A stretch of 64,000 nucleotides of DNA from a virus, in the IMG/VR virus record IMGVR_UViG_3300035042_000066; one strand, 5' to 3'. The notes beneath the pieces were generated by a model. The model saw only the letters and a program-made list of their open reading frames with translations, did no database searches and was not told the DNA's origin. The position numbers and the translations under genes are program-made. Of this stretch, positions 11,366-13,456 are shown one piece after another; the stretch's first letter is position 1; the number at the start of each line of letters is the position of its first letter.

Positions 11366-11441
11366 TGGTGGGCCTCATAGGACTTAAACCTACAACCGAA
11401 CCGTTATGAGCGGTTTGCTCTACCAATTGAGCTAAAGGCCC
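11366..11441 (-). tRNA. tRNA with CAT anticodon (likely Ile2, otherwise Met)
   Basis: Cloverleaf GGGCCTT..AGGCCCA-CCA; T-loop TTTAAGT is non-canonical. Confidence 0.85.
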
Positions 11442-11447
11442 ATATAA

Positions 11448-11529
11448 TGGCTCCTCAGGTTGGACTCGAACCAACATTGCCAAAGGCACTGATTAACAGT
11501 CAGCTGCATTACCAATCTGCCACTGAGGA
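11448..11529 (-). tRNA. tRNA-Asn(GTT) with a long variable arm
   Basis: TCCTCAG/CTGAGGA acceptor, loop CTGTTAA, extra arm GCCTTTGGC, G73-CCA. Confidence 0.85.
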
Positions 11530-11618: not shown

Positions 11619-12239
11619 TTAATCTATTTCTACTACGTTATATCCTACAACATCCCATACTTTTTTGTCTACAAAATAAAATTCAAAATTATCAAGTCCT
11701 TCTACAATAACTTCATTTTGGCCTTCAGTGATAACTTGTTCTTGTAGATTTGTTTGCCCTATTTCATAGATATAATTGATAAATTCTTGACTAAACATAC
11801 CATTTTTGTACGCTTCTACAACTACCTTTTCTGTTCCTGATTTAGCAGTAGATTTGCCTTGCGGTAGTACTGTAATAATTACAACTTGATTTTCTTCAGA
11901 TTTTGATTTTCCATCCGGCCTATAGTCTATAACAATACCTTGATTTAAACTTTTTGAATAAAACAAATATTCTTTGCTTGAAGAATTATTTTTAGTTAGA
12001 TAGTTAATAACCTTTTGGAAAAGGTATTTAATTTGTTCAACTGATGTATTTGATCTTTCTAAATATCGTTCAGCTGAATGTTTAGTATCAATAATCCATT
12101 TATTTTTGTATTGATATAAATATTCTTCAGACTTTCCTTTTAGTCTTTTGTATAAAGGAATATTTTTTTGTTCTTTCTCAACTCTTTTTAGAATATTTGA
12201 AATATTCTTTTCTTGTAAAATTTCTTTAAAATCTATCAT
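11619..12239 (-). CDS. putative internal head protein inside the tRNA cluster
   Basis: N-terminus MIDFKEILQE. Confidence 0.7.
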   Translation of the reverse strand: MIDFKEILQEKNISNILKRVEKEQKNIPLYKRLKGKSEEYLYQYKNKWIIDTKHSAERYLERSNTSVEQIKYLFQKVINYLTKNNSSSKEYLFYSKSLNQGIVIDYRPDGKSKSEENQVVIITVLPQGKSTAKSGTEKVVVEAYKNGMFSQEFINYIYEIGQTNLQEQVITEGQNEVIVEGLDNFEFYFVDKKVWDVVGYNVVEID

Positions 12240-12258: not shown

Positions 12259-12290
12259 TGGTCTCCGTGGTAGGACTCGAACCTACATCA
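12259..12290 (-). pseudogene. 3' fragment of tRNA-Arg(TCT): variable loop, T arm, acceptor, CCA
   Basis: TGAT GTAGG TTCGAGT CCTAC CACGGAG A CCA begins right after the endonuclease stop codon. Confidence 0.8.
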
Positions 12291-13058
12291 TTATGAGGGT
12301 TTTTTTCTTTTAAAACAATTATTTTCATAAAAATTAGGTAAATATCGTTTCATCCACCAATTTACTTTAGACGGTGAAATGCCTAATATTTTTGAAGCTT
12401 CATTTACCCATCCAAATTTAGAAAAATCAATATTAGATGTTAATATTTTTTCTTTATAAGGCTCCCACTTTATATCAGCCTTTTGTCTGGGAGATAATTT
12501 TTTTGATTTATTTTTATTTTTATTTTTTCTGTCAAATTGTTCTTTTAAATAATTTGAATAATCTGGTTGCTCCCTTTTTGAGATTATTTTTTCTAATTTA
12601 TCTAAATTCCAAGAAATAGAATAATGTAGTTCTAAAATATTCCAACCATTTTCTAATAGAAGATTATGTCTTTTTTGATAATATTCTTTTAATGTCCCAT
12701 CTCTATTATAATGTTGATTTCCATTTATTTCAATACCTAGTTTAATATCTGGAAATGCTATATCAATAGAAAAAAATCTATTTTTTAATGGTTGATATTC
12801 TTCAATAAATTTAATATTTCGTTCAGATAAAAATTTTTTTACTTTTTCACAAGGAACAGAAATTTGTTTATTTTTATTTCTCCATGGATGTTTATCTGGG
12901 TTTTCTTTTAAATATTTAATTCTCTTTTTAGATAGTTGTTCTCTGGTTTTTTTAGAGTGTTGATTTGAGCATTTATCACTACAATATTTACGTCTTTTGT
13001 CAAAACCTAATTTAACTGGATCAAAATTTTTATTACATCTAGGGCATATTTTATTCAT
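12291..13058 (-). CDS. free-standing putative homing endonuclease (Vsr/DUF559-like PD-(D/E)xK) with N-terminal Zn finger
   Basis: CPRC..CSDKC; FSIDIAFPDIKLGIEINGNQHY; C-terminal HTH-like segment. Confidence 0.75.
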   Translation of the reverse strand: MNKICPRCNKNFDPVKLGFDKRRKYCSDKCSNQHSKKTREQLSKKRIKYLKENPDKHPWRNKNKQISVPCEKVKKFLSERNIKFIEEYQPLKNRFFSIDIAFPDIKLGIEINGNQHYNRDGTLKEYYQKRHNLLLENGWNILELHYSISWNLDKLEKIISKREQPDYSNYLKEQFDRKNKNKNKSKKLSPRQKADIKWEPYKEKILTSNIDFSKFGWVNEASKILGISPSKVNWWMKRYLPNFYENNCFKRKKPS

Positions 13059-13104
13059 TTAAACCTCCTTATATATTATTTATCTTTTTATAAGGAGGTT
13101 TAAA
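13058..13104 (-). promoter_or_regulatory. RBS-sequestering hairpin with late promoter in the loop
   Basis: Perfect 16-bp IR TTTAAACCTCCTTATA/TATAAGGAGGTTTAAA covering the SD and the A of ATG; AGATAAATA at 13077-13085. Confidence 0.85.
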
Positions 13105-13123
13105 TTAATATCTGATATTAATA

Positions 13124-13159
13124 AGAAATCTATTGCTCATCCAGTTGAGCTACACTGAG
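13124..13159 (-). pseudogene. 5' fragment of tRNA-Arg(TCT), up to the anticodon
   Basis: CTCAGTG TA GCTC AACTGGAT GAGC A ATAGA TT TCT; pairs 6/7 with the 3' fragment acceptor. Confidence 0.8.
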
Positions 13160-13174
13160 ATTTTATTAAATTTA

Positions 13175-13456
13175 TTAAAAACTAAAAGGTTTCAATTTAT
13201 TCGCTACTTCTTTTGCTTCTTCTTGGGTATCAAAGTATCCCACAGTTTCATCAGCATAATCACTACGCTGATCTACATAATCTACTGTAACATGCTGACA
13301 ACTATCACAATAATCCCCAGTTGAAATAAAATCATTTTTTTCAGATTCAGTCAAATCATTTTCATCACAGTTATAACAACCAACAGCGAAATTTGAAATT
13401 GAAACTCTCCAAGCTTTGTTCATCTTAAATCTCCTTTTTAAAATAATTTCGATCAA
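13175..13456 (-). CDS. hypothetical protein
   Basis: ORF with early promoter upstream. Confidence 0.6.
   Translation of the reverse strand: MIEIILKRRFKMNKAWRVSISNFAVGCYNCDENDLTESEKNDFISTGDYCDSCQHVTVDYVDQRSDYADETVGYFDTQEEAKEVANKLKPFSF

Follow-up and report, generated by a model that had tools for sequence, protein, structure and literature searches.

A 64,000-nt stretch of phage DNA (the window, meaning here the whole stretch analyzed) contains an intact endonuclease open reading frame (ORF) between the two halves of a tRNA-Arg(TCT) gene. Is this insert an intron that still allows a working tRNA, or a mobile gene that has destroyed the tRNA gene in which it sits? The source contig (69 kb, 27% GC) comes from an uncultured T4-like phage with a bacterial-type lysin, is part of a larger genome, and occurs in oil-field and subsurface metagenomes. 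AGA accounts for 378 of its 523 Arg codons (72%), in agreement with the initial annotation, which had taken AGA to be the main Arg codon.

An endonuclease gene replaces two bases of a tRNA-Arg anticodon loop

All parts of the locus lie on the minus strand. Comparison with four sister alleles and with intact control genes placed positions 1–36 of the tRNA, the 5' half, at 13124..13159. This half comprises the acceptor strand with C4 changed to A, the D arm with A21 deleted, the anticodon 5' strand ATAGA, and the loop through TCT; it ends exactly after the anticodon at 13124, as was originally reported. An 827-nt insert (12297..13123), the same in the window and the four sister alleles, stands in place of A37-A38. 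It carries a perfect 19-bp palindrome (9-bp arms, 1-nt spacer; 13104..13122) directly 3' of the anticodon and holds most of an intact 255-aa endonuclease ORF (12291..13058), identified from its translation, profile matches, and model fold. Positions 39–76, the 3' half, occupy 12259..12296, as defined from the sequence, the sister alleles, and an intact phage tRNA-Arg, and contain the anticodon 3' strand TCATA, the variable loop, the T arm, the acceptor strand, the discriminator A, and CCA; the T arm, acceptor 3' strand, and CCA run from 12286 to 12259.

Strict patterns for the two halves matched only the split locus and real tRNA genes in the window, and in 100 simulated sequences they gave 0 and 0.01 matches per 64 kb, so the split tRNA is not a chance resemblance. 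Because the same insert recurs in contigs from other samples, it is not an assembly error either. Two intact viral tRNA-Arg(TCT) genes (L001 and L002) share the T arm and acceptor of the split gene and identify the parent type, and a search of viral contigs with the exact 5'-half sequence gave no match. ARAGORN and Rfam detected just three intact tRNA genes downstream of the split locus, those for Leu, Asn, and Met, and ARAGORN with relaxed settings and introns allowed returned noise only. The tRNA-Asn(GTT) gene (11448-11529, minus strand) shows poor pairing in its D stem, and its variable region is 12 nt long; the tRNA-Met gene (11366-11441, minus strand) has U instead of C at T-loop position 56. 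A tmRNA was also considered for the split locus and rejected: a full D arm is present and ARAGORN made no tmRNA call.

The initial annotation held that the 3' half resumes right after the ORF stop codon and that the 3' strand of the anticodon stem is missing. Both statements need revision, however. The four sister alleles (L200–L203), contigs from other samples retrieved by protein identity, have TATGA as their anticodon 5' strand, compared with ATAGA in the window allele. The pentamer TCATA at 12296-12292, within the last ORF codons and overlapping the stop, pairs at 5/5 positions with the sisters' TATGA; the 3' half therefore begins at position 39, before the stop codon, and just A37-A38 have been lost. 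An intact phage tRNA-Arg exists with the same TATGA/TCATA stem and the same next three bases. Judged by these sequences, the odd strand is the 5' ATAGA of the window and not the 3' TCATA. ATAGA also occurs as the anticodon strand of seven intact genes, and its origin in the window could lie either in recombination with another natural allele or in local change.

The tRNA halves are damaged in all five alleles

With the insert removed, ARAGORN called L200 and L201 as tRNA-Arg(TCT) with a full cloverleaf, and the window allele was not called Arg. In the window allele, A4 faces G69, the acceptor mismatch already seen in the first reading; the anticodon stem retains 2/5 pairs; and A21, whose absence had passed unremarked, is missing, although it is present in 71/71 intact controls. 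Among the sisters, L201 lacks A21, L202 and L203 lack A21 and carry A4, and L200 and L202 have a T-stem mismatch. Intact control tRNA-Arg genes showed 7/7 acceptor pairs and 5/5 T-stem pairs in 72/72 cases. Each of the five alleles is thus defective in ways absent from intact controls, suggesting that the halves are wreckage and not exons. They vary among alleles at 18/261 bases, as much as the flanks do, and we read them as unconstrained. The 3' half of the window copy is, at the same time, more complete than those at other family loci.

Rfam searches of the insert region at E values up to 10 yielded no group I or group II intron, and the same search did find group I cores at the homologue loci L049 and L078. 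The window insert shows no terminal G, no ribozyme core, and no exons that rejoin to a complete loop, and neither its joined ends nor its junction folds form a bulge-helix-bulge (BHB). The absence of group I and BHB structures noted at the outset was thereby upheld. One junction fold, in which the anticodon pairs with the ORF end, was considered as a BHB and rejected; the stretch encodes the conserved FKRK end of the protein family. No possible junction gives a purine at position 37 (CC or TA only).

An identical insert lies on divergent flanks

Comparison of the window with its four sisters revealed no differences in the insert (0/3308 compared bases), whereas the flanks of the same alleles differed by about 6% (39/618 bases upstream, 18/267 downstream). 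As the sisters were retrieved by protein identity, amino-acid identity is built into this comparison, but variation could have appeared at silent sites and in the 65-nt leader. The same uniform-insert pattern was seen in runs selected by DNA words, there only in short contigs. Such uniformity between divergent flanks is what a recent homing sweep would leave, with short and variable co-conversion into the tRNA halves, and the window element still seems to be spreading between phages.

Comparison with uninterrupted alleles, proposed earlier as a check, yielded close intact tRNA-Arg genes in other contexts (among them L001 and L002). A search via the downstream 206-aa gene found no viral locus and one 40% homologue with no adjoining tRNA, and no joint across the insert was found in the short contigs of four runs; these searches gave no empty allele in the same gene context. 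A joint from 12287 to 11487 was examined as an empty allele and rejected, as it looks like an unrelated tRNA gene. The flanking genes (13175-13456 and 11619-12239, minus strand) have no family match and diverge by 5–10% among sister contigs, and the downstream one (11619-12239) has a single homologue at 40%.

The protein resembles the I-Bth0305I homing endonuclease

The protein consists of an N-terminal, four-Cys zinc-finger-like part (C5, C8, C26, and C30), a nuclease domain at about residues 65–165, and a C-terminal helix-turn-helix (HTH). E71, D99, E110, N112, H116, R130, and H131 stand out in the nuclease domain; all are invariant in 45 homologues except E71, which is nearly so. The best PDB match of the AlphaFold model (mean pLDDT 91) was the catalytic domain of I-Bth0305I (Foldseek E 6e-4), with model residues 67-163 superposing on chain residues 167-258 (VIA Z 12.0, rmsd 3.8, 91 residues aligned), followed by RAP-type, NGO0050, and Vsr domains. 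A sequence profile found no match in the PDB. Pfam matches to RAP, DUF559, and HTH were weak and sub-threshold; RAP matched weakly in 35/45 homologues, and DUF559 (PF04480) scored 15.2 bits against a gathering threshold of 20.6 and matched weakly in 8/45. Of the Vsr/DUF559 label first given to the protein, the Vsr part stands, through the fold matches to I-Bth0305I and Vsr, and the DUF559 part falls short of the Pfam threshold.

I-Bth0305I belongs to the EDxHD family (PDB 3r3p), is encoded in an intron of recA, carries N-terminal NUMOD repeats and a C-terminal nuclease, and, as a homodimer, cuts a pseudopalindrome to leave 2-base 5' overhangs (PMC3239194). Its E170, D196, N208, and H213 correspond by spacing to E71, D99, N112, and H116. 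No conserved Asp follows H116; R130-H131 are invariant at that place, and His seems to stand where EDxHD has its final Asp. The two proteins share a Vsr-like catalytic domain, Glu/Asp/Asn/His at matching spacing, and a phage homing context, but the window nuclease is central, between the four-Cys part and the HTH, and has neither NUMOD repeats nor an intron (PMC3239194). Because of this architecture we did not file it as a strict member of the EDxHD family. On the strength of the model, the protein is predicted to act like an EDxHD/Vsr homing enzyme, and 2-base overhangs of the I-Bth0305I type would fit the loss of the two bases A37-A38.

The leader carries a hairpin and a probable late promoter

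A 16-bp hairpin (13058..13104, minus strand; fold −21 kcal/mol) sequesters both the Shine-Dalgarno sequence and the first base, A, of the start codon. Its loop contains the motif AGATAAATA (13077..13085), which occurs 16 times in the window against 5.4 expected, many copies lying just 5' of genes; from this copy number we take it for a probable late promoter. A scan for Sigma-70 promoters and terminators found nothing clearly over the chance level. The hairpin could hide the ribosome-binding site on long early transcripts, and the late promoter in the loop could bypass the hairpin; such an arrangement would cause the gene to be read late in infection. A hairpin masking the ribosome-binding site, combined with a late promoter, is the layout of I-TevI and other T4 endonucleases (PMC2988022), and the regulation suggested by this leader is like theirs in both the hidden ribosome-binding site and the late promoter in the loop (PMC2988022).

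The outer arms of the hairpin form a family-specific inverted repeat, present in 22/108 family clusters versus 0/671 control ORFs. The repeat is similar to the T-loop motif of tRNAs, and it may double as an operator. In two cultured phages, at about 955-970 of L238 (MK373774) and about 875-890 of L239 (PP738764), the homologue's late promoter is directly adjoined by a 13-nt stretch that repeats the canonical tRNA-Arg D-arm motif in inverted orientation; this stretch is possibly an operator that mimics the target.

Family members adjoin tRNA-Arg(TCT) genes with altered D arms

We surveyed about 200 loci of the nuclease family, counting clusters with enough flank. An intact tRNA-Arg(TCT) lay within 150 nt of the ORF in at least 59/96 clusters, versus 1/132 among tRNAs farther off, and most of the remaining clusters had odd tRNA-Arg forms that the first finder missed. 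With a looser finder, an intact tRNA-Arg(TCT), referred to here as the spare, adjoined the ORF in 86/115 homologue clusters. The usual D-arm motif was retained in 2/86 adjoining spares versus 65/101 unselected viral tRNA-Arg(TCT) genes; the homologue loci are related, so these counts are not independent and a p-value overstates the difference.

The anticodon loop is preserved in the spares, roughly half of which possess a long variable region. In 24 distinct cases the spare is rewired, with the D-loop motif placed after the anticodon arm; positions 11-13 then pair with the bases before this motif in 61/72 cells, versus 34 ± 3.6 when shuffled. Rewired tRNA-Arg(TCT) genes, at L003:2345-2423, L051:251-329, L123:2239-2320, and about 25 more loci, have a covarying 3-bp D stem and are mostly missed by ARAGORN. 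A second odd form of the spare, with a longer linker and a long variable region, was seen at L044:2257-2338, L058, L066, L091, L094, L095, L366, and L368; two of these score weakly as tRNA-Sec in Rfam. Flanking tRNAs with a CTA (amber) or CCT anticodon instead of TCT were observed at L040:3261-3334, after the ORF at L072, and at L073, L176, and L177. Two close homologues with a rewired spare have an HNH gene directly upstream (L360:576-1136 and L364:578-1138). A 1-kb contig from a Pacearchaeota bin (L188), which looks like a mis-binned phage fragment, carries the late-promoter motif, a homologue, an overlapping spare, and an orphan 3' half.

Broken tRNA-Arg genes accompany the family. A complete nest, with a broken canonical 5' half, the nuclease and its spare, and a broken 3' half, is present at L047, L090, L106, and L021, and broken 5' halves adjoining homologues end at positions about 30-36. 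Three homologues lie directly downstream of an intron-bearing tRNA-Arg(TCT) (L078:80-350, L024:2043-2330, and L180:920-1190), with group I-type inserts at 34/35 in two cases and at 36/37 in one; the intron was matched at Rfam level in L078 only and judged by eye in L024 and L180. L078 also carries a second 3' half after the ORF. The window copy departs from the usual state of the family, in which the nuclease brings a spare tRNA, a feature that escaped the initial annotation: no spare tRNA-Arg, cloverleaf or rewired, was found in its 69-kb contig. One other spare-less split was found (L370), making this a rare state. At this locus a divergent tRNA-Arg(TCT) is interrupted within its variable loop by homologue P0015 (L370:1080-1130 and 1970-2005); a 4-nt repeat marks the two junctions, and the acceptor stem has 7/7 pairs. 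The protein tree is poorly resolved and is compatible with the window copy having lost a spare or never having had one.

Spare, intron, and split all remove the intact canonical D arm plus anticodon arm, which is as expected if this DNA is the target; the comparison points to canonical tRNA-Arg D-arm/anticodon DNA as what the enzyme recognizes. T4 SegB, a free-standing GIY-YIG enzyme encoded in the tRNA cluster next to tRNA-Arg, cuts the tRNA genes of T2L; it recognizes the T-loop motif in general form, and many tRNA genes are among its substrates (PMC2330249). The window enzyme might likewise home by cutting something else nearby, another tRNA via the T-loop motif or a protein gene, with tRNA-Arg as its landing site only. 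The likeness of the family's upstream inverted repeat to the T-loop motif, and a few distant homologues with no adjoining tRNA-Arg (L240 and L241), lend themselves to this explanation. We nevertheless consider it unlikely: the family is linked to a single isoacceptor, the spares are altered in the D arm and not in the T loop, and the anticodon loop of tRNA-Arg is where the breaks and the protective introns concentrate.

Discussion

The best explanation of the locus, to which we assign a probability of about 0.78, is that the insert represents a free-standing gene for a homing endonuclease with the Vsr/I-Bth0305I fold, and that this enzyme targets the DNA of canonical tRNA-Arg(TCT) genes. The intact nuclease ORF lies outside any intron or intein. 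That such a nuclease destroyed a phage tRNA-Arg(TCT) gene was the central proposal of the initial annotation, and it is supported by the fold match, the invariant catalytic residues, the position in the anticodon loop, the damaged halves, the identical insert between divergent flanks, and the family linkage. Its likely substrates are intact tRNA-Arg genes in other phages. In a mixed infection, recognition would involve the D-loop/D-stem motif as well as the anticodon loop; the enzyme would cleave an intact allele on the rival genome within or close to the anticodon loop, and repair templated by the carrier would copy the insert into it. Carriers would need immunity. Most family members may obtain it from a spare in which the anticodon is retained but the D arm is altered or moved, and others from a group I intron in the tRNA-Arg gene. 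As the insert splits the target site, the carrier of the window copy would itself be immune, with the tRNA gene sacrificed. The phage would then depend on the tRNA-Arg(UCU) of its host, or alternatively on a spare located outside the assembled contig.

Loss of tRNA-Arg(UCU) looks costly to a phage in which 72% of Arg codons are AGA, and this is a counterpoint to the homing reading. A new protein-spliced tRNA intron would need no spare: after pairing of the halves, the insert would be cut out for ligation by a protein, conceivably the nuclease that it encodes. With AGA as the main Arg codon and no spare in 69 kb, such a solution has its appeal, and it would suit the full cloverleaf that ARAGORN recognizes as tRNA-Arg(TCT) in insert-free L200 and L201, the comparatively complete 3' half of the window copy, the weak RAP matches in 35/45 homologues, and a fold common to RNA-binding RAP domains. 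Even so, no junction yields a purine at 37, uncompensated defects occur in 5/5 alleles and in none of the intact controls, the halves diverge as much as the flanks, group I core and BHB are both absent, and the spare-less L370 breaks its tRNA elsewhere, in the variable loop. We therefore regard protein splicing as quite improbable, and give no more credence to its extended version, in which the Vsr/RAP-fold protein combines homing into tRNA-Arg genes with help in removing its own RNA, and alleles that look intact, such as L200 and L201, would go on producing a working tRNA-Arg. That the protein is an RNA toxin cutting canonical tRNA-Arg(UCU) of the host or rival phages, with the spare as antidote, would also account for spares with altered D arms and for a fold common to RNA-binding RAP-domain proteins, but is very improbable, because with no spare in 69 kb and AGA at 72% of Arg codons it would poison its own phage, and its zinc-finger and HTH parts, a DNA homing enzyme as best match, the broken halves, and the sweep pattern all speak against it.

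As a homing endonuclease, the window enzyme has much in common with SegB. Both are encoded by free-standing genes adjoining tRNA-Arg in a T4-like tRNA region, with the ORF end abutting tRNA sequence; both have the ribosome-binding site in a hairpin; and SegB cuts the tRNA genes of related phages, as the window enzyme is predicted to do (PMC2330249). SegB, however, is a GIY-YIG enzyme directed by the T loop to many tRNA genes, whereas the window enzyme is Vsr-like and associated with one isoacceptor, and SegB sits between intact genes and leaves its own genes unharmed, whereas the window gene lies inside its target and destroys it (PMC2330249). F-CphI, encoded beside the psbA intron, exemplifies collaborative homing, in which the carrier is immune because the target is interrupted by the intron (PMC6083498). 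The window nuclease is likewise free-standing with an interrupted target in its carrier, and three homologues follow an intron-bearing tRNA-Arg(TCT); in the window, by contrast, the interruption is the unspliced nuclease gene itself and the function of the target is lost (PMC6083498). The collaborative arrangement of an intron in the target plus a free-standing nuclease is thus found at L078 and probably at L024 and L180, but not in the window.

Like group I introns of tRNA genes and archaeal BHB introns, the window insert lies in the anticodon loop after position 36, between halves that can pair. It differs from them in having no ribozyme core, terminal G, or BHB, and in that two loop bases are lost and the halves are decaying. 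To our knowledge, the free-standing homing endonucleases described so far do not inactivate the gene that they target. In a literature search with most subscription journals outside its reach, we found no paper on tRNA-Arg-splitting nucleases with disguised spare tRNA-Arg cassettes.

Cultured phages of Escherichia, Klebsiella, Acinetobacter, and Providencia carry homologues that are 42–50% identical across the nuclease domain; in the two Escherichia and Klebsiella phages examined, the homologue overlaps a divergent tRNA-Arg. As relatives lie beside tRNA-Arg in cultured E. coli and Klebsiella T4-like phages, the model is testable by ordinary crosses; the E. coli phages MK373774 and MN864145 are cultured carriers. 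The nuclease family appears to be dedicated to one tRNA gene, with three routes to carrier immunity: a disguised spare, an intron, and destruction of the gene. The survey yields a recognition rule, the D-arm motif plus the anticodon loop, and offers a likely reason for the odd look of many phage tRNA-Arg genes, including the rewired fold missed by ARAGORN. The window copy suggests that such an element can spread even though it kills the tRNA for its phage's commonest Arg codon.
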